Shown: positions 39,038 to 64,000, numbered from the stretch's first letter. The stretch is DNA of 64,000 bases from Candidatus Kapaibacterium sp. (GCA_044350705.1 JBILHA010000002.1:306295-370294), one strand, 5' to 3'. Translations and numbers: made by a program. The notes: generated by a model from the letters alone, not told the origin.

Positions 39038-39091
39038 TTGGCTAAGAAGTTTGACATTCATGGGTCTGAGGCGTATGCTTTGCGTACTTTT

Positions 39092-39244: not shown

Positions 39245-39296
39245 AAACAAAATGCTCCGCTTCGTGCGGAGTATTTTGATACTATTTTCTTGAGCT

Positions 39297-39886: not shown

Positions 39887-40144
39887 CTCTTTTCAAATGT
39901 GACTATCCGGTGCTCATGGTTTTCGATGCGGTCCATGACAATACTTACGACATCTACGATTTCGCCGACAATTTCTTTTTTCATACGGTTATTTTCTTGG
40001 CGAACGTAATCGCGCATATCACGCATTTCATCTTTCAGTTCTTGTTTTGTGACAAAGGTATCTAAAAGTTCTTTTTTTATAAACTTTACATCTTTTTAAG
40101 TTAGAGACATGTTTTTTTACCGTTTATCTGAAGAAATATATCGG

Positions 40145-41127: not shown

Positions 41128-41183
41128 GCGCCTTTTTGATCATGTTCCAAGATGATTTCATGATGGCAACGTGATTCAAAGTT

Positions 41184-42032: not shown

Positions 42033-42034
42033 AA

Positions 42035-42604
42035 TTACGTGATATGAAGGTGTTTTTTTATTTCTGTGAGCATTTTTTCTCCTTTGAATTTATTGACGGT
42101 GCTCATGAGTATTTCTTCTCCTTTGGGATGCTTGAGTACGATGAATGTTGTTGTATTGTCCGCTCCTCCGTAGGTCATCTCCAGTCTCATCTCATCAAAG
42201 GTTGTTAGTTTTTCTTCTTGGAGTCCTTGTTGTTTTATAACGGTTTTTTGTGCGGCATCGAGGATGATCAGGGTGTCGTTGGGATGAATACCTCCTTGCT
42301 CTTTGCGGATATCTTGAGCTACCTTCCCTTTATAGAGCATGATTGCTCCTATCACTGCGAGAAGAAGTGGAAGGATATTTCCGGGGGATAGTGCTAGTCC
42401 TTCCTCGGCATACTTGCTTATGGTGTATATGCCGATGAGTTGATATGCTCCTAGCCCGAACATGACCGCTCCAAAAATAAGTGCAAAGACTGAATCAGCG
42501 GGACGTACTCGATGAGCAATGAGAGAATTGCCGTTTTTATAAAGTCCTGGGCGGATTTTTTCCCAGCCGATCATGCTTTGGATCATATGGGCGCATTGTA
42601 ACAA
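42035..42604 (-). CDS. hypothetical membrane protein (two TM helices plus a cytoplasmic domain)
   Basis: Hydrophobic segments FALIFGAVMFGLGAYQLIGIY and ILPLLLAVIGAIMLY. No motif recognised. Confidence 0.45.
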   Translation of the reverse strand: MLQCAHMIQSMIGWEKIRPGLYKNGNSLIAHRVRPADSVFALIFGAVMFGLGAYQLIGIYTISKYAEEGLALSPGNILPLLLAVIGAIMLYKGKVAQDIRKEQGGIHPNDTLIILDAAQKTVIKQQGLQEEKLTTFDEMRLEMTYGGADNTTTFIVLKHPKGEEILMSTVNKFKGEKMLTEIKKHLHIT

Positions 42605-42635
42605 ACCCCTCGGAAGGGATGCCGAGGGGTTTGCA

Positions 42636-43925: not shown

Positions 43926-44019
43926 AGTGAGGTCAAAAGAGGGTGAAGAAGAGAACGGATAACATGTTTTTTATGAGACTGCGGGAGTATACGGGAGCTT
44001 TTCCGGGCAGTCAAAGTCT

Positions 44020-45504
44020 TTGGCTAAGGTTTGCTCTTTTTTCCTCTTTTTTCTTGTGAGTTGCGCGAAAACGGGGTATACTCTTTCCCGTATGCCCTCT
44101 CGTCCGTCACTTGCGGTACGTCTAGGACTTTTCTTGGTGCGCACACTTCTTTTCTTTAAAGCAGCGCTTCTTCGCTTTTTCCAGGCGCTTATTCCTTTTT
44201 TTCGACGAGTAGGAAAGCTTTTTTTTAAGCTTCTTGTTCCGGGTTATCGCGTGTTCTTTTTTGCAAGACGCAACATGAGCGCCGTATATCGGCCGGTCAA
44301 GAATAGGCTCATGTATATTGTCAGCAACCGGTATTCTTTTTATGTGCTTGTTGTCCTTATTGCAGTTATTGGGGGTGTGACGAATATTCAGGTGAACGCC
44401 GTACGTGCTGAAGTAGATGAGATTGGCCAGCGGAGTATTTTATACGCCCTTGCGACGAATGAGCGCATGGAGTTTGTAGAAGAATACAGCGATCCTAAAG
44501 ATGCTCGTTCCTATGTTGTCTCCTCTCCTTCTCAGGAAGGGGGTGTTCTTGCGGGATCATTTGTACAGAGTACTCATGACACGCTTGCGCTTGAAAGTTC
44601 TCCTGGTCTGTTTAGGGCTGATGGGGCGTTTGCACTGAGTGATCCTGGCGCTCCAGGTGAAGACCCATCATCGCCTGCCTCTTCTCTTGTTGCTGCATCT
44701 CCTGCTCGTACTGAGATTACTACGTATGCTGTAGAAAGTGGAGATACGCTCTCTACTATCGCAGAGAAGTTTGATATTAATTTGAATACGCTTCTTTGGG
44801 CGAATAATCTTACCGTTCGTTCAGTGTTGAAGCCGGGTCAAGAGCTCACGATTTTACCGGTTTCAGGGGTGGTACACACGGTGAAGAGCGGAGATACGCT
44901 TTTGGCTATTGCGAAGAAGTACAATGTTGATTCCTCAACGATTGCTTCTTATAACAATTTTGACGATGGTGGGTCGCTCCAAATTGGACAGCGATTTATT
45001 ATTCCTGGAGGTGTCATTACGGCAACCACTCCCCGTACTACTACTGCTACCGTTGCTGTAAAAGATATCTTTACGTCAGCTCCTTCGGGAAGTCAGGGGA
45101 GCACGACGCCTTCCGCAGGTGCGTCCATGGTATGGCCTACAGATTTGCCTACTTTAGTGCGCGGAATGAGTTGGTTCCATACTGGATATGATATTGACTG
45201 TAATGGTCGCGCGAATGGAACTTCTACCAATGACAACTATGCTGCTGATGGAGGGGTGGTACTTTTCGCGGGTTCAAAGCGAGGATATGGGAATACGGTG
45301 GAGATTGATCACGGAAATGGACTCATCACTCGGTATGGACATTTCTACTCTCTCTATGTGGAGTCTGGCCAGACAGTAAGTGCCGGTGACCCGCTTGGAA
45401 GATGTGGATCGACGGGAAATTCTACCGGTACTCACCTTCACTTTGAGGTCATCGATTCTTCTACAAAGAAATTCCTCAACCCTGCAAATTATATTCGTTA
45501 CTAA
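44020..45504 (+). CDS. membrane-anchored peptidoglycan hydrolase with two LysM domains and a C-terminal M23 peptidase domain
   Basis: LysM repeats (YAVESGDTLSTIAEKF..., HTVKSGDTLLAIAKKY...). M23 HxxxD/HxH motifs (VEIDHGNGLITRYGH, THLHFEV). Start uncertain; alternative Mets at 44089 (MPSRPSL) and 44284 (MSAVYRPV). Confidence 0.8.
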   Translation: MAKVCSFFLFFLVSCAKTGYTLSRMPSRPSLAVRLGLFLVRTLLFFKAALLRFFQALIPFFRRVGKLFFKLLVPGYRVFFFARRNMSAVYRPVKNRLMYIVSNRYSFYVLVVLIAVIGGVTNIQVNAVRAEVDEIGQRSILYALATNERMEFVEEYSDPKDARSYVVSSPSQEGGVLAGSFVQSTHDTLALESSPGLFRADGAFALSDPGAPGEDPSSPASSLVAASPARTEITTYAVESGDTLSTIAEKFDINLNTLLWANNLTVRSVLKPGQELTILPVSGVVHTVKSGDTLLAIAKKYNVDSSTIASYNNFDDGGSLQIGQRFIIPGGVITATTPRTTTATVAVKDIFTSAPSGSQGSTTPSAGASMVWPTDLPTLVRGMSWFHTGYDIDCNGRANGTSTNDNYAADGGVVLFAGSKRGYGNTVEIDHGNGLITRYGHFYSLYVESGQTVSAGDPLGRCGSTGNSTGTHLHFEVIDSSTKKFLNPANYIRY

Positions 45505-47003
45505 GTACGTATAAGAAGCCTTGAGCGATAGCTCAGGGCTTCGCTTATATGTTCTGCGGTTACGTTTTCTTTATTCTCCAAGTCGGCGATGGTTCTGCTT
45601 ACCCGCAAGAGTCGTGCATATCCTCTTCCTGAGAGTTGAAAGCGATCTATGGCTTTTGCAGCAAGTTCTTTTGCGCTTGCGTCGAGGTTTGCGAGCTTTT
45701 CATAGAGTACTAAGTTATTTTGTGTTGTTTGGAATCGATGGTGTTGTTTTTCCCGTATGCAGGAAAGGTGTTCCTTGGTTGGCCAAGGTGTTAGGGGTTC
45801 GTTTTGCACAAGTTCATCTGCAGGGATACGGGGAAGATCAATGAAGATATCTATTCGGTCGAGAAGTGGCCCTGAAATACGTTCTTGATAGCGTTTCATT
45901 TTTCTTTGATCGCAGATACATGCTTTTGCGGGATCATTGAAATATCCGCAAGGACAAGGATTCATAGCGCAGATAAGGTGTACATTTGCGGGAAAGCAAG
46001 CGTGCCCGGATGCTCGGGCGATGTGAACCTCCTTCGCCTCTAATGGCTCACGTAAAGCTTCAAGCGATTTTTGGGGAAACTCTGGAAGTTCATCGAGGAA
46101 GAGGATGCCGTAGTGCGCGAGGCTTATTTCACCTGGAGTAATGGAGGCTCCCCCTCCAATGAGTGCAGCGGCGCTGGTGTGGTGATGTGGAGCGCGAAAG
46201 GGACGTGCGTAAGAGAGTCCGTATACCTTTTCTTTGTGAAGCGATCTTATTGAAGCTAGTTCGATCGCTTCTTCGAAAGAGAGCGGAGGAAGGAGGTGTT
46301 GGGCGGTTTTTGCAAGGAGTGTTTTTCCGCTGCCGGGAGGTCCGATGAAAAGGGTTGGATGCATTCCGGCGCATGCGATCAGCAGCGCGCGCTTGGCCAG
46401 ATGATGCCCGCGAATTGCGTGAAGAGGGTGAGAAGATGATTCGTTTTCTTGCGAAATGATGGGTTGTGAGGATTTTTTGAAAGGAAGTGTTTTTTGAGAA
46501 ATGAGGGCAATGAGTTCTTTGAGATTGCTGCATGCATGTACGGAGATGTTTGGAATGACTTCGAGGATACGTGCATCATCTGGAGCAACGATGATATGTT
46601 GAATGCCTTTCTTTTTTGCGTAAAGCGCAAGAGGAATGCTTCCTCGTACTGGCCGAAGTTCTCCAGATAAGCCTAGTTCTGCACAGATTAATATCTTATC
46701 GAGGTGGGCTGTGATGATTTGTTCTTCTGCGGCAAGAAGCGCTAATGCAATCGCCGCATCATGATGTGACCCCTGCTTTCTTTCATGTGCTGGTGCGAGA
46801 TTTACGGTAATGACGGTTTTTGGAAGAGCGTAGCCGCTGTTTTGGAGTGCGGATCGTATTCGTTCTTTTGATTCTTGTACGGCAGCGTCGGGTAATCCGA
46901 CAATTGAGAAACGGGGAAGGCCGAAAGAAATATCCACTTCGATTTGTACTGGTTGTCCTTCTATTCCTTGAATTGTTGCGCTTGATAAAGAAAAAAATCC
47001 CAT
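45501..47003 (-). CDS. YifB/ComM family Mg-chelatase-like AAA+ ATPase
   Basis: N-terminal Lon-like domain, Walker A GPPGSGKT, ChlI-type C-terminal domain. Start taken at the internal Met to avoid overlap with lspA. Confidence 0.85.
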   Translation of the reverse strand: MGFFSLSSATIQGIEGQPVQIEVDISFGLPRFSIVGLPDAAVQESKERIRSALQNSGYALPKTVITVNLAPAHERKQGSHHDAAIALALLAAEEQIITAHLDKILICAELGLSGELRPVRGSIPLALYAKKKGIQHIIVAPDDARILEVIPNISVHACSNLKELIALISQKTLPFKKSSQPIISQENESSSHPLHAIRGHHLAKRALLIACAGMHPTLFIGPPGSGKTLLAKTAQHLLPPLSFEEAIELASIRSLHKEKVYGLSYARPFRAPHHHTSAAALIGGGASITPGEISLAHYGILFLDELPEFPQKSLEALREPLEAKEVHIARASGHACFPANVHLICAMNPCPCGYFNDPAKACICDQRKMKRYQERISGPLLDRIDIFIDLPRIPADELVQNEPLTPWPTKEHLSCIREKQHHRFQTTQNNLVLYEKLANLDASAKELAAKAIDRFQLSGRGYARLLRVSRTIADLENKENVTAEHISEALSYRSRLLIRT

Positions 47004-47047
47004 ACATGATGGGGAGTATAGGAGGGCGAATGAGGCGAGGAAGGGTT

Positions 47048-47548
47048 TTATGTGTTTTGGTTTGCTGAAACCTCCTCTTGTCTGTCTGCTTGTTGATAGT
47101 ACCACGCGCAATATCCGATGCCGGTGATAATCAGGAGATCGGCAATATTTATTGCAGATCGTGAAAAGAGAATGAAGTAATCGGTTGTGTATCCTGTGAG
47201 GAGGCGATCAAAGAAATTACTTCCTGCTCCAACGATTGCTGCCGTGAGTGCTATTTTTAGCGTTTGATTTTTTACTGTTATCCAGGAGTATATAAATGCA
47301 ATGATGAGTCCCCCGGTAATGATTAGTGTAAGGGTTTGTGGGAGGGGGATGCTAAATGCAATACCTGGATTTGCAAAGTATGCGAGCGTGAGAAATGAAG
47401 TATTTACCGATGGAAGATTTCCTTGCAGCGCAAAAAGCTTCATGAGGATATCTGCACAGGCAAAAAAAAGGACGCATCCATAAAGAATGCGTTCATTTTT
47501 TTTTGAGAGGTTAGACCTCTTGTGTGAGGGTTCGTTTGCAGGCAACAC
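47048..47548 (-). CDS. lspA: lipoprotein signal peptidase II
   Basis: Four TM helices, NPGIAFS and FDRL...D motifs. Confidence 0.85.
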   Translation of the reverse strand: MLPANEPSHKRSNLSKKNERILYGCVLFFACADILMKLFALQGNLPSVNTSFLTLAYFANPGIAFSIPLPQTLTLIITGGLIIAFIYSWITVKNQTLKIALTAAIVGAGSNFFDRLLTGYTTDYFILFSRSAINIADLLIITGIGYCAWYYQQADRQEEVSANQNT

Positions 47549-47909
47549 ACGATGTTGAGGTTGGTCGAATGCGAAGACGTGCTTCGTCGATAGACTGCTT
47601 ACAGTATTTGCACATTCCGTATTCGCCTTTTTCGAGCGCTTTGAGCGCTCCTTCTACGTCTTTTAATGCGCGGTTAATTTCCTCTTCCAGGGAAAGATCG
47701 TCTCCAAGCTGGGCGATGCGTTCTGCGCTTTCTCCTTCATCTGCGCCGACGTCGCTCATTGCTTCCTCGGCTTTTGCGGGGTCGCGGTGCGAAAAGCTGG
47801 CGAGCTCTTTTTCGAGGCGTTCACGTTCCTCGATGAGGAGTGTTTTCATTTCTTCTATAAATGCTGCTGAAAGAGCTTGTTTTACCATAGAGAGGGAGAT
47901 ATTTCTCAT
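47511..47909 (-). CDS. DksA/TraR family C4-type zinc-finger protein
   Basis: Coiled-coil N-terminus, C-terminal CKYC...CVAC zinc finger. Confidence 0.8.
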   Translation of the reverse strand: MRNISLSMVKQALSAAFIEEMKTLLIEERERLEKELASFSHRDPAKAEEAMSDVGADEGESAERIAQLGDDLSLEEEINRALKDVEGALKALEKGEYGMCKYCKQSIDEARLRIRPTSTSCVACKRTLTQEV

Positions 47910-48276
47910 ACAATACGTAAGAATGAAAAAAAAGAAAAGAGCATATCCTCCAAGAGAGATTGCCTATGCGGCGCGAGTCTCTTTGGGGAATGATCTTTCT
48001 TTCTGATGCGCGACAAGGGAGGAGAGATGTTGGGAGGAAAACACGAATATATCCTGTTTTTTTCACAACATATCTTCATCCTTTGTGGGCCATCGTGCGG
48101 TATCGCAAAGCCTTATGATGGGAACGTGCATTTCTTTCTTGCCGCTTTTTTCATGCAAACAATCCTCATGATCTCGCTCTGCGTGCGTAGCGTGCTCGAC
48201 TTTTCATTGTCCAACACGTGTTGCCACACCAAACGGAGTTTTCGAAAGAACGATTACATCAAAATTGTAACATACT

Positions 48277-49359
48277 TTATTTATTGAAAATGGTGAGGGT
48301 GTTTTCCTTTGCGAATATTTTTTTTCCAAAGTGGGCAAGAGTTTTTGGAGCGTGTTTTTTTTCGGCTGGCACTCTTTGCAATTCTGCGCTCCAGTATGGA
48401 GTCATGGATGCCCATTCCGTTGGCGCGGTGCTGATCAGCGTGTAGCCTTGTTCTGTTTTGATATACCCCACTTCTTCTCCTTTGTTTATATGGGCTGTTC
48501 TTTCTTCTTCTGGTGGGGTGAGGCTAATTACTGCGTGTGTCTGTGCAGTATATGAAATGTCATCCTCTCTCATTTTTTTTTCTTCTCCGAGAGGTACATT
48601 TCCGATGTCATAGAGTAGTGCGGTAATGAACTCGTCTGTTGTTTCTCCTTCAATAACTGTCGCAAATGCTGATTCTCCATTTTCTTGCCAGGAGAAAAAG
48701 GCCACTCCTTTTTGACGGCTGAGTAGATCGTGTGCGCCTTGCCATTGTGCAGAGAATGGTAGCGGTGTTTCTTGTGGGGTAATTGGGAGCGCACTTATCC
48801 CTTCTTTTTGGGGCCAAGGAATTTGTTCTGCGGGAGTAAGATCTTTTGGAAAGGTGATGCTTAATCCATTTTCTTGGAGCGCTACAGGAAATGTTGCTTC
48901 GTGTGCCCAGGCCCATACGGTTGGGAGCGTGAGTGGGAAGAATGCATTTTTTTGCTGCTCTTGGGTTGTTTCACAAGAAAATGCAGCATTCACGTTGTTT
49001 GCTTCCCTCCCATTTTTGCCTATCAAGGAAATGTGCATCTCCCCACTTTTATCGGTTATGACTAGCCAGGTTGGTTGTTTTTTTGTAATTAGCGTTGCGA
49101 GATTCAAGGGACATTCTTCAGAGAGCATGAGATTTTGGGTGTGGGTTGCGATCCAGAGGGTATTTTCTGGCGTCAGACGAATGGCGATTCCTGAATCTGT
49201 TGCAAAACGAGGCACGGTTATTCCTACAAAGAGTCGTTTTGCAGTGCTCCATCCTATGCATATTCCGAGAAGCAGGATCCCCAAAAACACACCGACCCGC
49301 CAGGTGAGCCGGCGGGTTGGGTGAGCGGTGTTCAGTGGGATATTTGCATTGAGGATCAC
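48277..49359 (-). CDS. hypothetical membrane-anchored/secreted protein
   Basis: N-terminal TM/signal segment (VGVFLGILLLGICIGW), 360 aa, no motif recognised. Confidence 0.45.
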   Translation of the reverse strand: MILNANIPLNTAHPTRRLTWRVGVFLGILLLGICIGWSTAKRLFVGITVPRFATDSGIAIRLTPENTLWIATHTQNLMLSEECPLNLATLITKKQPTWLVITDKSGEMHISLIGKNGREANNVNAAFSCETTQEQQKNAFFPLTLPTVWAWAHEATFPVALQENGLSITFPKDLTPAEQIPWPQKEGISALPITPQETPLPFSAQWQGAHDLLSRQKGVAFFSWQENGESAFATVIEGETTDEFITALLYDIGNVPLGEEKKMREDDISYTAQTHAVISLTPPEEERTAHINKGEEVGYIKTEQGYTLISTAPTEWASMTPYWSAELQRVPAEKKHAPKTLAHFGKKIFAKENTLTIFNK

Positions 49360-49362
49360 AGG

Positions 49363-51600
49363 CTAGGATGATTTCCGGAGAGGAGGAGCTTTTATTCCTT
49401 CGGGCTTTTTCGGAGCTTGTGGACGAGCGGGAGCTTTTTGTGCCTTTGCTTTCATCTCTTCAGTATATACATTACCTTCTGCTTGTTTCATGGACAAGTT
49501 GAGCCGTCCTTTTTCATCTATTTCTAGAACTTTTACGTGTACCGTAGCGCCTTCTTGTACGATGTCGGTTACTTTTTCTACGCGCCAGGGAGCGAGTTCT
49601 GAAACATGCACGAGCCCATCTTTTCCCGGGAGTACTTCTACGAAAGCTCCAAAATCCATGAGACGTACTACTTTTCCGGTGAAGATTTCTCCTGGAGTTA
49701 CTTCGCGGGTGAGATTGAAGACCCAGTCATACGCGGCTTGGCCAGAGGCGCCATTTACGGCGGTGATCATGACCAGACCATCTTGTTCAATGTCGATTGC
49801 GGTAACGCCTGTCTTTGCAATGATGTCGTTGATGGTTTTTCCTCCCGATCCGATGACGTCTCGAATTTTATCAGGGTTAATGCGCAGCTTCAGAATGCGA
49901 GGAGCGCTTGGCGCGAGTTCGGCGCGTGGTGCAGGGATTGCTGCTTGCATGACATCGAGTACCTTGAGACGTGCGGTTTTTGCGCGGGTAATGGTTTCGC
50001 GTACGACATCGCGGGGAAGGCCGTCGGTTTTGGTATCGAGCTGAATAGCGGTAATACCGTTTGCGGTTCCGGTAATTTTGAAGTCCATTCCCCCTTCTCC
50101 GTCTTCAAGGTCTTGCAGGTCGGTGATGACCTGGTAGCGACCGTCTTTGCTTGCGAGTCCCATGGCAATGCCTGCAACGGGAGCTTTGATCGGTACGCCG
50201 GCATCCATGAGCGCGAGGGTTGCGCCGCAGGTTGACGCCATGGAGCTTGATCCGTTGGATCCGAGGGTTTCAGATACTACCCGAATTGCGTATGGGAAAA
50301 GTTCCTGATCAGGAATCATGTACTGAAGGGCTTTTTCTGCGAGCGCACCGTGGCCGATTTCGCGGCGGCCTGTTGAGCGCACGGGCTTTGCTTCGCCTAC
50401 CGCAAATGGGGGGAAGTTGTAATGATGCATGAAGCGCTTTTCTCCTACGAGTTCCATTCCATCAAGAGTTTGCTTGTCTCCGGGGGCACCGAGGGTACAT
50501 ACAGAGAGTACTTGAGTTTCTCCGCGTTCAAAGAGGCCTGAGCCATGTACGCAAGGAAGAACGCCTGCTTCTGCGGTGAGCATGCGAATATCTTCTACCC
50601 CACGGCCGTCTACGCGGCGTTTATTCTCGAGAATGTGCTTGGTGATTTCTCCTTCGAGAATAGCGGTCACCATACTTACGCCCATTTTTACTCCTTCTTC
50701 ATCGAGGCCTTGCTCCGTGAGGAATTGGGCGGTGTTTTTCTTGATGAGATCCTTTGCTGCAGCGCGTTCTGATTTCGTTGCGTACGGTGCGCCAAAGAAG
50801 TGCTTTTCGATTTCTTCGCAAATGAAAGGTTTTGCGATTTTTTCTACTCCCATTTTCTTTTCGAAGCGCGCACGATCTTCGTCGGTTTTCATGGCAAAAA
50901 TATCCGCCTTTTCTTTTCCGAGATCAGCACGTACTTTTTCGATAAGCTCAATGACTGGTCCAAGATGTTCTTGTCCAAAGAAAATTGCTTCAAGAACATC
51001 CTGTTCTGGAGCTTCGTCACATCCTGCTTCGAGCATGAGCACTTTTTCTGGGGTTCCTGCAACGTCAACATCAAAACGAGAAGCAAGACGTTCTTCGTAG
51101 CTTCCATTGAGAAGGAATGATCCATCAGGATTTTTGTTTACGCGTGCCACGGCAATCGGTCCATTCCAAGGAATGTCGGAAATATGGAGTGCACATGATG
51201 CTGCGATCAGTCCTGGAACGTCTGCATCATTTTTCCCGTCGAATGCAAGTGCGGTAACCATGACTTGTACATCGTTTTCCATGCGGTCATCGAAGAGCGG
51301 CCGGATTGCACGATCGATGAAGCGCGCAGTCAGCACTGCCTCGTCGGTTGGGCGACCCTCGCGTTTAATGAATCGAGAGCCTTTGATGCGTCCTGCGGCA
51401 TAGAGTTTTTCTTCAAATTCCACCATGAGCGGGAAGAATCCCAAGCCCGGACGAGCATCTTTGGACATTACTGCGGTTGCGAGCACCACGGTGTCTCCGT
51501 AGCGAACGGTACAGCTTCCATTTGCTGCGCGAGCAAACTTCCCTATTTCGATGGTGAGCGGTTTTCCGCCCCAGGTAATGCTATATGTTTTTGTTTCCAT
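49363..51600 (-). CDS. pnp: polyribonucleotide nucleotidyltransferase (PNPase)
   Basis: Two RNase PH domains, KH (GSGGKTINDI) and S1 domains, basic C-terminal tail. Confidence 0.95.
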   Translation of the reverse strand: METKTYSITWGGKPLTIEIGKFARAANGSCTVRYGDTVVLATAVMSKDARPGLGFFPLMVEFEEKLYAAGRIKGSRFIKREGRPTDEAVLTARFIDRAIRPLFDDRMENDVQVMVTALAFDGKNDADVPGLIAASCALHISDIPWNGPIAVARVNKNPDGSFLLNGSYEERLASRFDVDVAGTPEKVLMLEAGCDEAPEQDVLEAIFFGQEHLGPVIELIEKVRADLGKEKADIFAMKTDEDRARFEKKMGVEKIAKPFICEEIEKHFFGAPYATKSERAAAKDLIKKNTAQFLTEQGLDEEGVKMGVSMVTAILEGEITKHILENKRRVDGRGVEDIRMLTAEAGVLPCVHGSGLFERGETQVLSVCTLGAPGDKQTLDGMELVGEKRFMHHYNFPPFAVGEAKPVRSTGRREIGHGALAEKALQYMIPDQELFPYAIRVVSETLGSNGSSSMASTCGATLALMDAGVPIKAPVAGIAMGLASKDGRYQVITDLQDLEDGEGGMDFKITGTANGITAIQLDTKTDGLPRDVVRETITRAKTARLKVLDVMQAAIPAPRAELAPSAPRILKLRINPDKIRDVIGSGGKTINDIIAKTGVTAIDIEQDGLVMITAVNGASGQAAYDWVFNLTREVTPGEIFTGKVVRLMDFGAFVEVLPGKDGLVHVSELAPWRVEKVTDIVQEGATVHVKVLEIDEKGRLNLSMKQAEGNVYTEEMKAKAQKAPARPQAPKKPEGIKAPPLRKSS

Positions 51601-51603
51601 AAA

Positions 51604-52440
51604 TTAGGATTGTTTTGTTGATTCAGATGTGTTTTTCTTTGGACGACCTCGGCGCTTTTTTGCGGGAGTTTCGGAAGATTTTTTTTGCGAATTTTGAGAT
51701 TTTATTACCGATTCTGCGTGAGTTATTTTTTGCGGCGGTTTTACTTCAGGTGGACGCATTGCCGCTCCTGCCGCAGGGGCTTGGGGAGGTTTTGGCGCAG
51801 TGTTTTTTTGTTGAAGAAATACCATCGCAGGTTTTTCTGGGAAGGTGAGTACCCGATTTTCTCCCTGCTCCGCAATGACGTCGCTGAAGGTGTCGGTTAC
51901 TGATGCTACCCGATGTGTTTGTGGGCGATAGTGTGGATCCCGGATGAGATATTGCCCGAGGTTGTCAGAAAGGTTCGTATAGACATCTGCACAATCGACT
52001 AACTTACTTGAGGTTGATTCGCGGAAAGAGACCACGTGGAATACTCGACCTCTATTTTTAATGTACTCACCCAACGGAATATAGTCACCATCTCCCGAAA
52101 CAAGGACAACAACGTCGACCATATCAAGCATGCGAATGATATCGACGGTAATACCTACGTCCCAATCACCCTTTTTTTGTCCCCCCTCGTATTCGAGGAG
52201 TTCTTTCATGTTTACTTCGATGCCCATTTTATGGAGTGCTTCGAAAAATGGAAGCTCGTCACCGGTTTTGGTAGAAATGGTATAGGCAATGGCGCGTACA
52301 AGCTGTTGGTTGCCAATGCTCGTTTTTACGATGTTTCCGAAATTTACTTTACTTCCGTACATGTTGCGTGCGCTGTAGTACATGTTTTGTACATCGATAA
52401 AAACGCCCACGCGTCGGTTTTGATGTGAAAATTGTTGCAT
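51604..52440 (-). CDS. NYN-domain (LabA/YacP-like PIN-fold nuclease) protein with a basic AT-hook-like C-terminal tail
   Basis: VGVFIDVQNMYY...VLVSGDGDYIPL NYN pattern. Tail contains KKRRGRPKKN. Confidence 0.7.
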   Translation of the reverse strand: MQQFSHQNRRVGVFIDVQNMYYSARNMYGSKVNFGNIVKTSIGNQQLVRAIAYTISTKTGDELPFFEALHKMGIEVNMKELLEYEGGQKKGDWDVGITVDIIRMLDMVDVVVLVSGDGDYIPLGEYIKNRGRVFHVVSFRESTSSKLVDCADVYTNLSDNLGQYLIRDPHYRPQTHRVASVTDTFSDVIAEQGENRVLTFPEKPAMVFLQQKNTAPKPPQAPAAGAAMRPPEVKPPQKITHAESVIKSQNSQKKSSETPAKKRRGRPKKNTSESTKQS

Positions 52441-52737
52441 AGTGATGTGAAAAAGGGAGTAAGGGGAGTAGAGGGAGTGAAGGGAGTGGTGAGGTGAAAG
52501 ACTCCGGCGATAGGAGGAGTCTCGAGAATCCTTTTGGGTTTTCGAAAAAACTATTGAAGATGAAAAAGAATTTTTAAAAAAGATTTTGTATCAGTGTACT
52601 GCATTTTACAAAATATCATGGTTTGAAGATCCGTTCTGCCAAAGGCAGGCGGGTGCCCGACCTAGCGTCTTCCTCAGGACCGGCTCCTTGTCAGGCTATT
52701 TGCCTGACTTGTCGGTTAGGATGACGCGAATTTTTTT

Positions 52738-52776
52738 TGTGAAAAACCCCACTCGACATTGCGAGCGGGGTTTTTC
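52738..52776. terminator. rho-independent terminator downstream of rpsO
   Basis: gaaaaaccccactcgacattgcgagcggggtttttcac. Confidence 0.65.
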
Positions 52777-52784
52777 ACTTCTGG

Positions 52785-53051
52785 TTACTTTTTGAGTCCC
52801 AGAGCTTCAATGAGCTCAGCGTATGCCTTTGCGTCTTCGCGCTCCAAATATTTGAGGAGACGGCGGCGCTCAGCGACCTTCTTGAGAAGTCCACGGCGGG
52901 AGCTGAAATCTTTGCGGTGAGTTTTGAGGTGGCCGGTAAGCTCCTTTACCTCTTCCGTAAGAATTGCGATCTGCACCTGAGGAGATCCGGTGTCGGATTC
53001 ATGGGTGCGGAACTTCTTGATGATCTTTGCTTTTTTGTCTTTGTTGAGCAT
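52785..53051 (-). CDS. rpsO: 30S ribosomal protein S15
   Basis: ..[17 protein letters not shown]...HKKD..SRRGLL..V..RR.LL.YL S15 signature. Start taken at MLNKDKK. Confidence 0.9.
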
Positions 53052-53257
53052 AGATTTTTCTACAAATCGCATCATCTGAGTAGTGGGATGCTCAAACCCC
53101 AGACCAAGATGAAGGATATTTAAGGATTAACGGCTAAAGTTTATATTTTTTTGAGGGTTTTGTCAAAGAAATGATTGATTTTTTATTTTTCAGGCAAGGA
53201 ATACCTTCTTTATCCGTTCGTGTAACTATTTTACGACTCGTGATAACATTGAGATAT

Positions 53258-54199
53258 ATGGCAAAGCGATTGGAGGCGCATATCAAGGAATTTCTTGAGT
53301 ATTTGGAAATTGAGCGTGGGCGATCGGATAAAACCGTTCGTAATTATGGATTTTATTTGCATCGTTTTAGTGAATGGGCCAAGTCCCCTGCCCCGGCGGA
53401 AATTGATGCAGAGATGGTGCGACAGTTTCGTTTGCATTTGAATCGTGATGTTGCGGGACGTGATGAGCCTGCGCTTGCAAAGGCAACGCAGAATTATCAC
53501 TTAATCGCGCTTCGTGCATTTTTGAAATATCTCGCAAAGCGTGACGTGAAGACTCTTGCCGCAGAAAAGATTGAACTTGCAAAACAAGGATCTCGTCATG
53601 TGGAGTTTTTAGAAAAAGAAGAGCTTCTGCGCATTCTTGCGGAGCCAGGAAAGGATCCGACGATTCTTGGGTATCGGGATCGCGCAATTCTCGAGTTACT
53701 TTTCTCGACTGGACTTCGCGTATCGGAACTTGCGGGACTCAAAATTGAACAAGTGAACTTGAAGAACGATGAATTTACCGTGCTTGGAAAAGGAAGAAAG
53801 CATCGCATTGTCTTTCTTTCTCCCGAGTCAAAAGATGCGATTAAAGTGTATTTAGGCAAGCGCGAAGATGTTTCTCCGTACATGTTTGTACGTCATGATA
53901 AGGCGCGGCGAGCGAAGGGAGTGGGAGAAGAGTCAAAGCCCCTTACCCCTCGTTCTATTCAGCGTTTGGTTGATCGGTATGCGCGTATGGCGGGCATTAC
54001 GAAGTCGGTCACACCTCATACGCTTCGACATACATTTGCAACTGACCTTTTACGCAACGGAGCTGATATTCGTGCGGTGCAAACGATGCTTGGTCACGAA
54101 TCTATTACTACGACGCAGGTCTACACGCACGTTACGGATAAAGAACTCAAGCGCATTCATCAATCGTTTCACAATGCAGATAAAAAGAAAAAGGACTAG
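53258..54199 (+). CDS. tyrosine recombinase XerC/XerD family
   Basis: N-terminal SAM-like core-binding domain. Catalytic R..HxxR..Y motifs (LRHTFATDLL..., HESITTTQVYTHV). No flanking phage genes. Confidence 0.85.
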   Translation: MAKRLEAHIKEFLEYLEIERGRSDKTVRNYGFYLHRFSEWAKSPAPAEIDAEMVRQFRLHLNRDVAGRDEPALAKATQNYHLIALRAFLKYLAKRDVKTLAAEKIELAKQGSRHVEFLEKEELLRILAEPGKDPTILGYRDRAILELLFSTGLRVSELAGLKIEQVNLKNDEFTVLGKGRKHRIVFLSPESKDAIKVYLGKREDVSPYMFVRHDKARRAKGVGEESKPLTPRSIQRLVDRYARMAGITKSVTPHTLRHTFATDLLRNGADIRAVQTMLGHESITTTQVYTHVTDKELKRIHQSFHNADKKKKD

Positions 54200-57832: not shown

Positions 57833-60460
57833 ATGGAAGCTCAAAAAACCTTTATTGTTCTTGATGGAAATGCCCTTTTGCATCGCGCATGGCATGCTAT
57901 TCCGCCTCTTACCACGCGTGATGGAAGAGTGGTGAATGCGGCCTATGGCTTTACGAACGTTGTCGAGAAGATGCTGAACGTCTACAAGCCTGATTACATG
58001 GCAGTTGCGTGGGATTTGCCTGGCGCGACCTTTCGGCATGAGGCGTATGAAGCGTATAAGGCTCAACGTGAAAAGAAAGCGGATGAGCTCTATGAACAGA
58101 TTCCGATCATTCAAGAAATTCTTGCAGCCTACGGGATTCCTTCCTTGAGTGCTCCAGGATATGAGGCTGATGATGTTATTGGCACTCTTGCAAAGATGAA
58201 CGATGAGGAAGGAGGGATTGATACGCTTATTGTGACGGGAGATCGTGATGCGTTGCAGCTCGTGAATGAAACGACGAAGGTATTGTTTTTTGTAAAAGGA
58301 CTTTCTGAAGTGAAATTGTTTGATGCGGCTGCGGTTGAAGAAAAGTACGGCGTTACTCCGCTTGAGCTTATTGAAGTGAAGGCGCTTATGGGTGACTCTT
58401 CTGATAATTTGCCGGGTGTTCCGGGCATTGGGGAGAAGAGTGCGGTAGAGCTTGTTAAGCAGTTTGGGGGTGTTGCGGGTATTTTACAGGCGCTCAAGAA
58501 GGGTGAGATGCCCGATAAATACGCAAAGAAATTTGTTGGTCATGAAAATACGGCTGAACAGATGCGCATGCTTGTAGAAATTGCTCGGACGATTCCTCTT
58601 CCTGAGTTTCAACGTCAAGCATGTGCAATGCGTGGGCCGGATGAAACGCGCTTGCGCGCGCTTTTTACTGATCTCGAGTTTTCTTCTTTGCTTAAAAAAT
58701 ACGGTGGTGCTTCTTCCTCCTCCTCTGTTCCTCTTGCTGCAACAAAAGAGAAAAAGCGTACGAAGAAGAAGGATTCTCCTCCTGGGGGAACGCATGTTGC
58801 TACACCTGGCGGTGTCATTGGAGAGTGGATTGGTGTGCTTGTGACTACCAAGCAGCCAGACATGTTTGGCGCTTCTGTGGCGTCTGTGGTTCTTTCTGAT
58901 GGCAAGCGTTTGTGGAAAGCGGAACATCCCGACAAGGCTGTCTTAGAAGAGGTTGCACGGGCGCTTTTTAGCGCAAAATGGATTGTGACCCATGGCGCAA
59001 AGAATATTTTGCATGCGTTTGCTGATATGGGAGTCACGCTTTCCGGAGCATTTTCTTCTCGTCAACTTTATGACGCGGAGGTTATTGCCTACATGTTTAA
59101 TTCGAGCGCCCGAGAGTTTCCTTTGGAGAGTGTGGTGCATGACGTGCTTGAGAAAGATGTGAAAGGTGAAGAAGAGCTTGCGCTTGTTTTGCCTGAACTT
59201 GCTGAGGGGCTTCGTAAGAGATTGGAGGAAGTAGGCATGGAAAAGCTTTACCGGGAGGTAGAAATGCCGCTTATTTCCGTATTGTTTTCCATGGAGCATG
59301 AAGGTATTTGTGTCGATAAGAAGATGCTCTCTGGTCTCGCCAAGACGTTTGGTGAAAAAGTACAGTTACTTACAAAAGAAATTTGTTCTCTTGCAGGAGA
59401 AGATTTTAATGTGAACTCCCCTTCCCAATTGGCGACGATTCTTTTTGAGAAACTACAATTGCCGACGAAGGGTATTAAGAAAACGAAATCGGGATATTCT
59501 ACTGCGGCACCGGAACTTGAGAAGCTATGGGACGCCCATAAGATCGTTCCGCTCATTGAAGAGTATCGAGAGGTTGCCAAGCTTAAATCCACGTATGCAG
59601 ATACGCTTCCTGAACTTGTCGGTCCTGATGGACGTATTCATTCACGGTTCAACCAGACGGTTGCGGCAACGGGGAGATTGTCTTCATCAAACCCGAATTT
59701 GCAGAACATTCCTATTCGTACTGATTTGGGAAAGAAGATCCGTTATGCGTTTGTTGCAAAAGAGGATCACGTTCTTCTCTCCGCTGACTATTCGCAGATT
59801 GAGCTTCGTTTAGCTGCGGAACTTGCGCATGACGACTCATTTGTTCGTGCTTTTAAGGATGGAGCTGATATTCATCGAAGAACTGCTGCGGAAGTATGGA
59901 ATATTTCTGAAGAGGAGGTGACAAAGGAGCAGCGTGCCGCAGCAAAGGCGATTAACTTTAGTATTTTGTATGGTGTAGGCCCTCGTGCGCTTGCACGATC
60001 TACGGGCATGCATTTTGAAGAAGCGCGAGAATTCATTGCACGATATTTCGCGGTGCATCCAGGGATCCAAGCGTATATCGATGCCATGAAGTTACAGGCG
60101 CGGTCGCAGGGGTATGTACAAACGCTCTTTGGACGCCGACGTTATCTTCCTGATATTACTTCCGGCGTTCCTCAGCTTGTTGCTGCGGCTGAGCGCATGG
60201 CTATGAATATGCCTATTCAAGGGACGCAGGCGGATATTATTAAAATGGCCATGATTACGCTTTCCTCTTCCCTGGAGAAGTCTGATCTTCGAGCAAAGCT
60301 TTTGCTTCAGGTGCATGACGAACTCATTTTTGAGGTGCATGAAGAAGACGTGCAAGAAGTGGAGAAGCTCGTTCGAGAGAAAATGGTAAGCGTAGCGACT
60401 TTTAAGGTGCCTTTGGTGGTAGATGTGGCGACGGGAAAATCATGGGGAGATATTGTGTAG
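57833..60460 (+). CDS. polA: DNA polymerase I
   Basis: 5'-3' exonuclease domain (LDGNALLHRAWHA...), polymerase motifs A (LLSADYSQIELR), B (RRAAKAINFSILYG) and C (LQVHDELIFEV). Confidence 0.95.
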   Translation: MEAQKTFIVLDGNALLHRAWHAIPPLTTRDGRVVNAAYGFTNVVEKMLNVYKPDYMAVAWDLPGATFRHEAYEAYKAQREKKADELYEQIPIIQEILAAYGIPSLSAPGYEADDVIGTLAKMNDEEGGIDTLIVTGDRDALQLVNETTKVLFFVKGLSEVKLFDAAAVEEKYGVTPLELIEVKALMGDSSDNLPGVPGIGEKSAVELVKQFGGVAGILQALKKGEMPDKYAKKFVGHENTAEQMRMLVEIARTIPLPEFQRQACAMRGPDETRLRALFTDLEFSSLLKKYGGASSSSSVPLAATKEKKRTKKKDSPPGGTHVATPGGVIGEWIGVLVTTKQPDMFGASVASVVLSDGKRLWKAEHPDKAVLEEVARALFSAKWIVTHGAKNILHAFADMGVTLSGAFSSRQLYDAEVIAYMFNSSAREFPLESVVHDVLEKDVKGEEELALVLPELAEGLRKRLEEVGMEKLYREVEMPLISVLFSMEHEGICVDKKMLSGLAKTFGEKVQLLTKEICSLAGEDFNVNSPSQLATILFEKLQLPTKGIKKTKSGYSTAAPELEKLWDAHKIVPLIEEYREVAKLKSTYADTLPELVGPDGRIHSRFNQTVAATGRLSSSNPNLQNIPIRTDLGKKIRYAFVAKEDHVLLSADYSQIELRLAAELAHDDSFVRAFKDGADIHRRTAAEVWNISEEEVTKEQRAAAKAINFSILYGVGPRALARSTGMHFEEAREFIARYFAVHPGIQAYIDAMKLQARSQGYVQTLFGRRRYLPDITSGVPQLVAAAERMAMNMPIQGTQADIIKMAMITLSSSLEKSDLRAKLLLQVHDELIFEVHEEDVQEVEKLVREKMVSVATFKVPLVVDVATGKSWGDIV

Positions 60461-60562: not shown

Positions 60563-61549
60563 ATGTTTTTGGCTGTTTATGGAGAGGATGCATTGCGCGT
60601 TCGTGAACTTTCGGATGATCTTTTGGAGAAGTTTGTTGCAAAATATGATCCTTCACGTTTGAATGTTGAGATTTTTGATTTTTCTACAACTTCTCAGGAA
60701 ACACTGGTTCCTGCGCTTCAGGCAGCGCCTTTTCTTTCGGAAAAGCGATTTCTTTTTCTCAAAAATGTTGCGGATACCCTTAAGAAAGCTGATGCGTCTT
60801 TTTGGCTGGAGCTCTTTGAAGCTCTCGATCCTCATACGTCTTTGTGTTTTGTCGATGTACTTGATGAGAAGGCTTGGAAGAAGAGTTATTTGGGAGTATG
60901 GCTTGCGAAAAAGTCCTCTGAAGAAGTGAAGTACTTTTCTATTACTCCTTTTTCTCGGTCTGAAGCTGTTTCTTGGATTCGTGCACGTGCTCAGCGATTT
61001 ACCGTGTCTCTTTCGGAATCTGCTGCGACGTTTCTTTTTGCTCGCGTGGGCGGAGAAAGTCAGGAGCTTGCCGTGGAGATCCATAAACTCGCTTCTTATG
61101 CTGGAGATCAGCCAATTACGGAAGAAATGATTGAGAAACTTGTTCCTTTGCGTACTTCGTCTGATTTTTTTGGATTTCTTGATCTTCTTCCTACTGCAGA
61201 GCCGGATCGCTTGTTACGCGCCTTGGCTCAAGAGACGCAGGCGGGTACGGATGCGTTTGGTCTCTTTGGTGGTCTTTTACGGCAGCTCCGTATTTTAGCG
61301 GGGGTTTCGTTGCTTCTTGAGCAGGGCATTGCTTCCCAGAAGGAGGTTGCTGATACCCTCGGAGTACACCCTTTTGTTGCACAAAAAGCACTTCAGGGGG
61401 CACGGGCATTTTCTCCCCTTGCCCTTCGAGAGGCTTTGGAAAAGGCGACTTTTTGGGATAAACAGACGAAATTAGGGGTTTCTGCAGAAGTACTTGTTGC
61501 TCGTCTTCTTGAGGAACTTCTTTTTGCTCGTGTGAAGCCGCTTCCTTGA
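60563..61549 (+). CDS. holA: DNA polymerase III delta subunit
   Basis: Delta-subunit fold and length (328 aa), positioned after polA. Low sequence conservation is typical of this family. Confidence 0.65.
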   Translation: MFLAVYGEDALRVRELSDDLLEKFVAKYDPSRLNVEIFDFSTTSQETLVPALQAAPFLSEKRFLFLKNVADTLKKADASFWLELFEALDPHTSLCFVDVLDEKAWKKSYLGVWLAKKSSEEVKYFSITPFSRSEAVSWIRARAQRFTVSLSESAATFLFARVGGESQELAVEIHKLASYAGDQPITEEMIEKLVPLRTSSDFFGFLDLLPTAEPDRLLRALAQETQAGTDAFGLFGGLLRQLRILAGVSLLLEQGIASQKEVADTLGVHPFVAQKALQGARAFSPLALREALEKATFWDKQTKLGVSAEVLVARLLEELLFARVKPLP

Positions 61550-61855: not shown

Positions 61856-61890
61856 ATAAAAATCCCCCGCTTTTGCGAGGGTTTTTTATT
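61856..61890. terminator. bidirectional terminator between rpsT and rmuC
   Basis: aaaaatcccccgcttttgcgagggttttttatt. Confidence 0.6.
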
Positions 61891-63029
61891 TACTCGAGAA
61901 CTTCTGGCTTTGTCACCTTTTGCATTTCTATGAGATCCCCTACTTCTCCCGCGGTTATTTTTACAATGTCCTTAGAGAGCTTTCTTAGTTCCTCCGAAGA
62001 TTGATTAAACTGATTTACCGTTGTGCTTAGATTCTTCCCCATCCGATCATGAAAGTCTGCAAATGCGGTAAAGTGACGATGAAGTTCTTTTACTCGTTTT
62101 TTGATTTCTTCTGCGTTTTTTTCTATTTTCATGGCATTTAATGCTTGGAGAATGGTTTGTAAGTATGCCAGGAAATTTGTTGGAGATACGATAATAACTC
62201 GATACTTCCCCGCTGCTCGTTGGAGGATATTTTCGCTTTCCTCTCCTCCTAAAGAGCCAATTTTGTTTGTCAGGAGATCATAATAAAGCGCTTCGTGGGG
62301 AATGAACATGAATGCAAAATCAGTAGTACCTTGGTTGGGTTGAATGTATTTTGCAGTTTCCTGTATTCGTCCCTTGAGGTCGCTAATAAAAAGCTTTTCG
62401 AATTTGCTGCGTTCATCATCCGTACCTGCTTCTACACATCGGTTATAGTTTTCTAAGGTGAATTTGGAGTCAATTGGGATTATTTTTTCGTTTACAAAGA
62501 CCACGGCGTCAGCAATAGTTGTATCGGGGAATGCATACTGCATTTTGAAAGACTCCGGGGGGAGCGTATTTCCAAGGAGGGATTCGAGGTAAAATTCTCC
62601 TAAAATGCCTCTTTGTTTTGGGTTTTTTAGGATATCCTGCATTTTTTGTAGCTGCGAGGAGAAGTCCAGTACTTGTTTGTTTGTGCTATCGAGTGTGGTA
62701 AGGCGTTGGGTGACATCTTCGATAAGTTTGCTTGTTTGAGAAAATTGCGTCTGCATCGATCGATGCGATTCCGATAGCCCTCTTCCTACTTGTTCGTTCA
62801 TTTGATGAAGAGATTGCGCGATTTCTTTTCGTGCTTCTGTTTGCAGTTGGTAGAGTTCTTGTCGTTGTTCTCCTGAAAGGCGCTTTAAATCGCTCATTTC
62901 TTGTTTTAATAGATCCAGTGCGCCTTTGAGTTCATGTGATTGCCCCGTTTCTTTTCGGCTTATGAAGAAGAGTAGTATTCCTATGAGTGAAATTACCACG
63001 ACTACTAATGCGATAATGAGAGGATCCAT
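61890..63029 (-). CDS. rmuC: DNA recombination protein RmuC
   Basis: N-terminal TM helix, long coiled-coil, C-terminal RmuC nuclease-like domain. Confidence 0.8.
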   Translation of the reverse strand: MDPLIIALVVVVISLIGILLFFISRKETGQSHELKGALDLLKQEMSDLKRLSGEQRQELYQLQTEARKEIAQSLHQMNEQVGRGLSESHRSMQTQFSQTSKLIEDVTQRLTTLDSTNKQVLDFSSQLQKMQDILKNPKQRGILGEFYLESLLGNTLPPESFKMQYAFPDTTIADAVVFVNEKIIPIDSKFTLENYNRCVEAGTDDERSKFEKLFISDLKGRIQETAKYIQPNQGTTDFAFMFIPHEALYYDLLTNKIGSLGGEESENILQRAAGKYRVIIVSPTNFLAYLQTILQALNAMKIEKNAEEIKKRVKELHRHFTAFADFHDRMGKNLSTTVNQFNQSSEELRKLSKDIVKITAGEVGDLIEMQKVTKPEVLE

Positions 63030-63151
63030 AAGGTGAGTTGACCGTGATAGTTACGTTATTTATACTTTATCCGTCTTCATTTGGAAGGGCGTTGTAGGCA
63101 GTATAGCATTCTACGCGAACAATTACCGAACATTGTGTATAGTGTATACAA

Positions 63152-63173
63152 ATGTTTCACGTGAAACATTTGT
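63152..63173. promoter_or_regulatory. 22-bp perfect palindrome AAATGTTTCACGTGAAACATTT (candidate operator)
   Basis: Perfectly self-complementary. The 14-bp core recurs at 63578-63591, with half-sites (CATGTGAAAC) at about 63181 and 63279. Confidence 0.4.
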
Positions 63174-63195
63174 ATAGATTCATGTGAAACATTCT

Positions 63196-63271
63196 GTCCC
63201 CATAGTTCAATTGGATAGAACGTGGGCGTCCTAAGCCTGTAATCCTGGTTCAAATCCGGGTGGGGACACCA
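63196..63271 (+). tRNA. tRNA-Arg(CCT), CCA encoded
   Basis: Acceptor GTCCCCA/TGGGGAC, anticodon loop gTCCTaa, T-arm CTGGTTCAAATCCGG. Confidence 0.8.
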
Positions 63272-63379
63272 TTGCTTCATGTGAAACGCCTTTCGGGCCT
63301 TTGGCTCGGTTGGCATCGTGTTGTATTCGCTTGGGGTGGGTTCACGGTTCTCGTCTGTTTGACTCCACTCTGATTCAGA

Positions 63380-63690
63380 TCACCTCCCGATATATGCGGA
63401 GGTGTTTTTAGTATTTGTGGATAATTTTCTCCCTTAAAAAGGCTCATGTTTCATACGGAACATATGAGTGTTTTGTTTTGCAAATTGTGTATAACTTTTG
63501 GATTGTTTTTTTGCATTTTCTTTAGCTTCTTCATTTTTCTGCTAATATTAGGTAATTTTTACTTTCTTTTAAAAGTTTCACGTGAAACATATATGTGGAT
63601 AAGATGTGAATATCTTTGTGCATAATTTGTGTAGAAACAATATGTCAAGATTTGCTTTGACAAACTTATCCTCAGCGTATCCACATCGTG
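63380..63690. promoter_or_regulatory. second cluster of DnaA-box motifs in a 600-bp AT-rich intergenic region
   Basis: Perfect TGTGGATAA at 63416-63424 and 63594-63602, GTATCCACA at 63677-63685, hairpin cacctcc..ggaggtg at 63381-63404. Confidence 0.45.
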
Positions 63691-63716
63691 TTTTTTGCGA
63701 TATATACTGTTGAGAC

Positions 63717-64000
63717 ATGATCTCTGACTTTGCTGAGAGTTTTTTTTCCTTATGTAAAAAGAGCCTTTTGCTCGTTTTTATTGTTTCTTTCTTTTTTTCT
63801 GGACATACGGCTTTTGCAGAAATGTCCTCAACAAATTACTTATTGCAGTGGGATGCGGTATCTGTAGGCGGCCTGGATTCTCAATCATCCTCCGGCTATC
63901 AACTGCGTTCCACCTTTGACATGGGCGTTTCTTCGGATGTTTTAGGTTCCTCCTCGTACCGTCTCGACGGAGGTTATCGGGGTGGTATTTTTGATCCCGT
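63717..64000 (+). CDS. secreted hypothetical protein, 3' end beyond the window
   Basis: ATG at 63717, then a signal-peptide-like KKSLLLVFIVSFFFSGHTAFA, then a Ser/Gly-rich mature region. Open to the window end. Confidence 0.4.
   Translation, partial: MISDFAESFFSLCKKSLLLVFIVSFFFSGHTAFAEMSSTNYLLQWDAVSVGGLDSQSSSGYQLRSTFDMGVSSDVLGSSSYRLDGGYRGGIFDP

Follow-up and report, generated by a model that had tools for sequence, protein, structure and literature searches.

Gene arrangement at the rmuC–tRNA-Arg locus

In a stretch of 64,000 nt (JBILHA010000002.1:306295-370294, in the following called the window), we analyzed the intergenic region near the right end, a candidate centromere in which sequences matching parS, the site recognized by ParB, are interleaved with boxes of the replication initiator DnaA. 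This region separates rmuC from a gene for a signal-peptide protein of 317 amino acids and contains a tRNA-Arg(CCT) gene; the spacer between the latter two is 445 bp long. Position x of the window corresponds to 125,330 + x on contig Ga0453917_0000001 of JGI 3300042340 (462,301 bp; the 11.1-kb overlap is identical).

Relatives were found via RmuC in the GTDB genome set and were all metagenome-assembled genomes of Patescibacteria (with labels such as Paceibacteria and Nomurabacteria). Four are close, with RmuC identities of 82% (L003), 80% (L004), 72% (L005) and 69% (L006), while the remainder reach at most 60%. The order rmuC, tRNA-Arg(CCT), intergenic region, 317-amino-acid gene is retained in all four. 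The features of the region are as follows.

61890-63029, minus strand: rmuC, the divergent left neighbor and the anchor of the search for relatives
63145-63176: perfect palindrome of 32 bp; its core at 63153-63168, TGTTTCACGTGAAACA, matches the parS consensus at 16/16 positions
63176-63191: decayed parS-like site AGATTCATGTGAAACA (13/16), 5 nt upstream of the tRNA gene; orthologous sites in L003 and L004
63196-63271, plus strand: tRNA-Arg(CCT)
63273-63288: decayed parS-like site TGCTTCATGTGAAACG (13/16), 2 nt past the tRNA gene; L006 has a perfect parS 3 nt past its tRNA-Arg
63381-63404, plus strand: GC-clamped hairpin CACCTCC-N10-GGAGGTG, then T5 (T run to 63409)
63416-63424, minus strand: DnaA box TTATCCACA (9/9)
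63447-63462: putative parS relic TGTTTCATACGGAACA (12/16); the aligned site is 14/16 in L003, L004 and L005
63486-63494, minus strand: DnaA box TTATACACA, fitting the relaxed consensus TTATNCACA; varies only at the N position across four species
63541-63551: conserved near-palindrome GCTAATATTAG
63574-63589: second parS site AGTTTCACGTGAAACA (15/16)
63594-63602, minus strand: DnaA box TTATCCACA (9/9), 4 nt from the second parS site; invariant in four species
63605-63613, minus strand: weak DnaA box ATATTCACA
63617-63625, minus strand: DnaA box TTATGCACA, fitting TTATNCACA
63643-63662: conserved inverted repeat TGTCAA-N8-TTGACA
63666-63685, plus strand: two 8/9 DnaA boxes, TTATCCTCA and GTATCCACA, in opposite orientation to the others, 32-51 nt upstream of the operon ATG
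63717-64000 (continuing past the window), plus strand: start of the gene for the 317-amino-acid signal-peptide protein, which opens a conserved secreted-protein operon

The palindrome matches the consensus parS site

A first-pass annotation, made from the sequence alone, had described a perfect 22-bp palindrome at 63152-63173 that fitted no operator consensus. The palindrome is real, like all other features listed there, whose positions deviate by no more than 3 nt; its 22 bp occupy 63150-63171 and belong to the perfect 32-bp palindrome, a structure expected by calculation about 1.5e-5 times per 64 kb. Its core TGTTTCACGTGAAACA is printed as the consensus parS of ParB/Spo0J (bioRxiv 10.1101/724823). 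Because it agrees with this published 16-mer at all 16 positions, the palindrome is, by motif match, a canonical parS site and thus a predicted ParB-binding centromere sequence. It had seemed impossible to place because it was compared with transcription-factor operators. The accompanying suggestion of an origin-associated factor holds loosely, since ParB is such a factor, and that of an uncharacterized regulator does not.

Further copies follow in a short distance. The 14-bp core of the palindrome recurs as annotated, at 63575-63588 instead of 63578, and the half-sites reported to flank the tRNA gene are 12/14 copies at 63177-63190 and 63274-63287. These four matches to the core, including the 12/14 copies, compare with 0.22 expected and with 0 of 100 shuffles. 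At up to three mismatches from parS the window contains four sites against 0.36 expected, all of them within the 440-bp stretch 63153-63589. Since L006 carries perfect parS sites in the matching positions, we read the half-sites flanking the tRNA gene, on comparative grounds, as eroded parS and not as attachment repeats.

The conservation of the palindrome that the annotation had made a point of checking was also found: parS-like sites occur in the same intergenic region of all four close relatives. L004 has five at up to two mismatches; in L003 and L005, a single such site is accompanied by weaker copies. L006 possesses a perfect parS at the position orthologous to the window palindrome and, within about 1 kb (8883-9873 of CAZORP010000002.1), a total of 14 perfect parS sites and one 15/16 site. 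These copies share just the 16-bp core, their flanks being largely unrelated except for a duplicated module of ~362 bp. In two cases, just 1-3 nt separate the site from an end of tRNA-Arg or tRNA-Ala, and three to four DnaA boxes are embedded in the array.

Among 76 more distant rmuC loci (~1.2 Mb) we found no parS-like site within two mismatches, hence the motif is not a generic or dispersed repeat of the phylum. Few sites, confined to one place and drifting in copy number between species, is the behavior expected of a centromere. The distance of the parS cluster to the minimum of the GC skew (see below) is 26.5 kb, at most 6% of a replicon of at least 462 kb.

An independent assembly of the same organism, Logan contig SRR27421204_42133 (L002, positions 1-22), ends 6 nt short of the parS core. 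The contig break thus falls within the 32-bp perfect palindrome and is probably an artefact of assembly caused by a hairpin k-mer.

DnaA boxes form a conserved cluster interleaved with the parS sites

The two perfect TGTGGATAA boxes (63416-63424 and 63594-63602) and the 8/9 box GTATCCACA (63677-63685) listed by the first-pass annotation are all present, but the inventory was too short: six boxes at up to one mismatch lie in 63416-63685. Sites fitting the relaxed consensus TTATNCACA number four in 63416-63625, against 0.02 expected from the local composition, and seven in the whole window, the other three flanking dnaA. The cluster is made up of four TTATNCACA sites and three weaker boxes within 270 bp of intergenic DNA outside the origin, and most of its boxes share one orientation. 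One or two inverted boxes 32-51 nt before the operon ATG are found in the window as well as in L003, L004 and L005.

When boxes at up to one mismatch were counted in the relatives, 12 of 13 in L004, 8 of 10 in L003 and 6 of 9 in both L005 and L006 fell inside the same spacer. In an alignment of four species (72-82% RmuC identity), the box at 63594 is invariant, and the one at 63486 varies only at its fifth position (T/C/T/G), which is the degenerate position of TTATNCACA. The second parS site and the TGTGGATAA box 4 nt away are retained as a pair in the window, L003 and L004. Invariant alignment columns make up 81 of 128 columns within annotated motifs versus 23 of 177 outside, two of these motifs (GCTAATATTAG and TGTCAA-N8-TTGACA) having been defined post-alignment. 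The cluster is non-random and conserved, and its boxes are, judging from the alignment, under purifying selection. To this extent the annotation as a DnaA-regulated locus can be retained, as a hypothesis of binding or regulation by DnaA.

The gene-free region of about 600 bp had been called AT-rich, which is true of its right-hand 305 bp only (63412-63716, 30% GC). Within this part, the stretch 63425-63575 has 25-30% GC and is the least conserved portion of the intergenic region. No repeated 13-mers or DnaA-trios were identified beside the cluster boxes. The inverted repeat TGTCAA-N8-TTGACA at 63643-63662 could be a promoter -35 element or an operator. Motifs resembling GCTAATATTAG, of the form GCTAA(T/C)(A/C)TTAGC, recur three or four times in the L006 array.

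Strand asymmetry points to a probable origin at dnaA-dnaN

The first-pass annotation had placed the cluster about 25 kb from dnaA (24.5 kb by our count) and had proposed it as an alternative oriC, reasoning that genes are mostly on the minus strand from 12 to 53 kb and mostly on the plus strand from 57.8 kb onward, which was taken as the sign of an origin to the right of 53 kb. The gene orientations are as described. The following features are relevant for the position of the origin.

36000-37133, minus strand: dnaN
37134-37462: dnaA-dnaN spacer with six DnaA boxes, the probable oriC
37463-38917, minus strand: dnaA
38901-38968: three DnaA boxes (two of them 9/9) at the dnaA 5′ end and just upstream, facing rpmH-rnpA
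39094-39641, plus strand: rpmH-rnpA, faced by dnaA and dnaN in the classical arrangement

Altogether, nine DnaA boxes flank dnaA, and the order of dnaA, boxes, a short AT-rich stretch and dnaN resembles that in Bacillus subtilis. Over the window and a 9-kb extension, the cumulative G-C curve is cleanly V-shaped and reaches its minimum at 36635, which falls in dnaN at a distance of 500 bp from the dnaA-dnaN spacer. A minimum at dnaN-dnaA is what the annotation itself had named as speaking against an alternative oriC at the cluster, and that proposal is not upheld. Skew calculated per gene for the plus strand is negative to the left of 36635 and positive to its right for almost every gene, whatever its strand: a plus-strand penicillin-binding protein gene at 33060 has -0.08, whereas the minus-strand genes dnaA, 45501-47111 and rmuC have +0.14, +0.23 and +0.09, respectively.

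The blocks of minus-strand genes at 12-36 kb and 37-53 kb consequently show opposite skew. This pattern could not arise from an origin at 63.4 kb, because its fork would cross both blocks in the same direction. The switch from negative to positive skew at 36.6 kb, irrespective of gene strand, is the signature of an origin and places it at dnaA-dnaN, with the spacer between these genes as the probable oriC. The change of gene orientation at 53-57 kb is real but unrelated to the direction of replication. Skew stays positive for 9 kb past the cluster, and in L003, L005 and L006 the orthologous cluster likewise has positive skew to its left and right. Since no skew switch exists here or in these relatives, the cluster has not been an origin over the divergence time of the family.

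By skew, the plus strand is the leading strand in 37463-53000, yet the minus strand carries about 80% of the coding bases there. This segment forms an unusual head-on block of about 16 kb beside oriC, with dnaA and the genes for trigger factor, a ComM-like Mg-chelatase, Lsp, PNPase and a NYN protein.

An inversion of 36.7-63.4 kb, by which the cluster would come to lie next to dnaA, was considered and rejected: it would split the canonical dnaA-dnaN pair and keep the head-on block, and it is also ruled out by the relatives, which lack a skew switch.

Association of parS with DnaA boxes in other lineages

We scanned a metagenome contig collection, which excludes the window's own contig, for CACGTGAAACW-N4-TGTGGATAA, with the 4-nt spacing only. 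This search yielded 34 loci, one of which is the source contig of L004. Three low-GC, Firmicutes-like loci (L087, L093 and L096) have three parS sites and four or five boxes between rsmG and parA-parB, immediately upstream of the latter; the identity of these genes was confirmed by Pfam in L096, and the open reading frames of L087 and L093 are similar by sequence. Two others (L104 and L116) carry 4-6 parS sites and 4-5 boxes beside gyrA, and about 17 high-GC soil contigs (e.g., L092, L099 and L100) have a copy in common whose spacer, ATCGG, is conserved. Additional parS sites and boxes frequently accompany the pair within one spacer.

The combination of parS with DnaA boxes evidently extends beyond the family of the window. 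A rough estimate of how often two origin-enriched motifs meet by chance is similar in magnitude to this count, and we do not claim the 4-nt register to be special. The pair in other lineages would leave room for a widespread, undescribed composite site of ParB and DnaA. That parS and a DnaA-binding array have been fused into one conserved cis-element in this Patescibacteria family, including an invariant pair of parS and box 4 nt apart, is a tentative suggestion from the alignment about which we are more doubtful than confident.

Neighboring genes and other elements

To the left of rmuC lie three further genes, listed here in their order.

57833-60460, plus strand: polA
60563-61549, plus strand: holA
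between holA and rmuC in the gene listing: rpsT

To the right of the cluster, from 63717 in the window and at 801-9313 in L001, lies an operon for secreted proteins with lengths of 317, 294, 860 and 1397 amino acids and CarboxypepD_reg, PEGA and SpaA-like domains. Its first gene gave a match to the NCBIfam model CPR_pilus_PamT that is far below the threshold (E = 0.0017); this model describes the tip pilin of the pilus of the Candidate Phyla Radiation (CPR; preprint 10.64898/2026.03.03.709456). The operon may encode a surface fiber or pilus.

The GC-clamped hairpin pointed out by the first-pass annotation is present at 63381-63404 and, together with the T run up to 63409, looks like the intrinsic terminator of the tRNA transcript. 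It was not called by a scan for consensus terminators, its loop probably exceeding the 3-8 nt limit of that scan. In 62900-64000, Rfam at a permissive threshold returned the tRNA alone, while the palindrome gave chance microRNA-like matches. A small RNA between the tRNA and the hairpin was rejected, with a fold z-score of just -2.3 and no family match. The segment 63288-63380 is GC-richer, and part of it resembles the 3′ end of tRNA-Arg (GGGTGGGTTCAC vs. GGGTGGGGACAC). Because L005 and L006 have a tRNA-Ala(CGC) gene downstream of tRNA-Arg, this segment may be a decayed tRNA gene.

At the other side of the window, 7000-12300 forms an island of 58-65% GC against a background of 47%, with long open reading frames (449 and 696 amino acids) that have no Pfam match on record. 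A T4SS-pilin-like gene borders it. Since a Logan contig from another sample (L084) carries different genes in place of this stretch, it varies between strains and was probably acquired.

A probable centromere with an embedded DnaA-box cluster

We consider it likely that this region serves a chromosome of the Patescibacteria (Paceibacteria type) as its origin-proximal centromere, with a conserved cluster of DnaA boxes, without origin function, embedded in it. Drawing on what is known of ParABS systems, we infer that ParB dimers would nucleate at the two strong parS sites and spread over the neighboring DNA as a CTP-dependent clamp. ParB would thereby organize, mark and segregate the origin region with ParA, by loading of SMC, or both. 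DnaA would occupy the boxes of the cluster outside oriC. The cluster would be duplicated almost at once, within seconds, after initiation, such that the local capacity for DnaA binding would double early in the cell cycle. The boxes could then act as a sink or regulator of initiator availability, as do datA of Escherichia coli and the DnaA-box clusters (DBCs) of B. subtilis, for which such an early doubling has been proposed. Alternatively or additionally, DnaA at the centromere could license segregation or link it to initiation, as in Caulobacter, and the promoter-proximal inverted boxes might control the adjacent secreted-protein operon.

Several results weigh against a centromere with a non-origin cluster. 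A search of the window with its two 10-kb flanks (~84 kb of the 462-kb contig) and of 85 related loci, by regular expressions, tblastn with Spo0J and Soj, a small hidden Markov model and Pfam, turned up no ParB or ParA gene. The Spo0J and Soj queries were approximate, and the model was seeded with real sequences from L087, L093 and L096 in three of four cases for ParB and three of three for ParA. A literature search found no paper on ParB or parS in CPR/Patescibacteria. The dnaA-dnaN spacer has 43% GC compared with 30% in the cluster, which also has more consensus boxes. Judged by its motifs only, the cluster resembles an origin at least as much as the spacer does; what speaks against an origin there is strand asymmetry and not motif content. 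Several of the 8/9 boxes, of the form TGTGTATAA, can also be read as extended -10 promoter elements, and the post-alignment definition of two motifs mentioned above belongs here as well.

Instead, the DnaA boxes might be transcriptional operators of the secreted-protein (pilus-like) operon and perhaps of the tRNA gene, with their adjacency to parS being incidental because both accumulate near origins. DnaA is a known transcription factor, and the two inverted boxes, which precede the conserved ATG by 32-51 nt, coincide in part with the sole promoter-like site (-35 at 63680, -10 TATACT at 63703-63708). Furthermore, a rate of parS-plus-box adjacency above expectation could not be demonstrated in unrelated lineages, and some B. 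subtilis DBCs regulate adjoining genes according to PMC3245932. However, the boxes are distributed over 270-650 bp to the left and right of the tRNA gene, mostly in one orientation, and in L006 they are found within the parS array, 300-550 bp away from where the operon begins. Such a layout fits an oligomer-forming cluster better than an operator of one or two boxes, and it is not obvious how a surface or pilus operon would be connected with the cell cycle. We regard operators as an unlikely account of the boxes.

We give very little credence to the cluster as a second, alternative or dormant origin. It is the densest set of consensus boxes in the window, includes a 150-bp stretch of 25% GC and is conserved in relatives, and parS sites often adjoin oriC; but four genomes show no skew switch at the cluster, same-strand blocks of opposite skew meet at 36.6 kb, conservation within the region is lowest in the AT-rich spacer, and dnaA-dnaN already has the classical layout of boxes and spacer. 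Even less probable, in our view, is that the palindromes act without ParB, be it as operators of an unknown dimeric regulator of the tRNA gene or rmuC, as an RNA hairpin for tRNA processing, or as att repeats. Copies of the palindrome do abut the tRNA ends (2-5 nt in the window, 1-3 nt in L006), the strongest copy sits between a promoter-like site (63038-63066) and the tRNA gene, and ParB was not demonstrated in the part of the source genome that was searched. Against this stand the 16/16 identity with the universal, well-characterized parS and the situation in L006, where 14 perfect copies have unrelated flanks and for the most part are distant from tRNA genes. Moreover, the repeats beside the tRNA gene do not stem from its 3′ end, L006 has perfect parS at the same positions, and Rfam recognized nothing besides the tRNA. 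A tRNA-linked integrative element was rejected, too: the repeats TTCATGTGAAAC are not tRNA sequence and bracket the tRNA gene alone, the nearest gene of the integrase family (53171-54199) is 9 kb away, and this gene recurs in the independent contig L002 of the same or a near-identical genome.

If parS and the DnaA array are one fused element, as tentatively suggested above, the initiator and ParB would share a few hundred base pairs, and initiation would thereby be coupled to segregation in organisms whose cell-cycle machinery is minimal. The locus, as a probable centromere, would provide the first placement of an origin (dnaA-dnaN) and a centromere (26.5 kb away) on the chromosome of an uncultivated member of the Patescibacteria, a group whose chromosome biology is, to our knowledge, essentially undescribed. 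If functional, the region offers a compact target of 300 bp for tests with recombinant DnaA and ParB in vitro. The assignment of the palindrome also corrects a tempting misannotation, since parS palindromes with DnaA boxes nearby have already been taken for parts of an origin, as when Ori-Finder proposed TGTTTCACG as a “DnaA box” in Bradyrhizobiaceae. The points of interest that remain are the DnaA-box cluster embedded in the putative centromere and the remarkably dense parS array of L006.

Comparison with known systems

With oriC, the cluster has in common several consensus boxes of the same orientation beside an AT-rich stretch. It differs in having no switch of strand asymmetry, in not being located by dnaA or dnaN, and in an AT-rich part that is not conserved in sequence. 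The B. subtilis DBCs and E. coli datA are similar in that they are intergenic clusters of at least four consensus boxes near, but outside of, oriC. We know of no overlap of a parS site with any of the six B. subtilis DBCs. Another difference is that no IHF-type accessory site was identified at the window cluster. Extra-origin DBCs of B. subtilis restrain initiation together with Spo0J/Soj, as stated in PMC3245932.

Dense centromere arrays are known from plasmids, e.g., sopC of the F plasmid. L006, with 15 ParB-type inverted repeats in about 1 kb, attains a plasmid-like density; its array is, however, chromosomal, has unrelated flanks and is not a regular tandem repeat, and the window has just two strong sites.

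The chromosomal parS/ParB (Spo0J) systems of B. subtilis, Caulobacter, Thermus and most bacteria share with the window the identical 16-bp inverted repeat TGTTTCACGTGAAACA, present in few copies that cluster near oriC and are conserved at the orthologous position in relatives. Proximity of parS sites to origins is a reported feature (Livny 2007, as cited in PMC6399470). In contrast to these systems, the sites of the window crowd around a tRNA gene in a single intergenic region, with DnaA boxes interspersed, and cognate ParB/ParA genes were not seen in the ~84 kb searched.

A parallel for this interleaving is the centromere of Caulobacter crescentus, where DnaA boxes also lie in the parS region, a few to tens of kilobases from the origin. 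There, DnaA binds these boxes and acts at the centromere besides the origin (Mera et al. 2014, as reviewed in PMC6399470). The window belongs to an unrelated organism that has no known polar anchoring system, and its boxes, known here from sequence alone, are numerous and match the consensus. If the interleaving is functional, it would represent a second independent example, after Caulobacter, of an initiator acting at a centromere.

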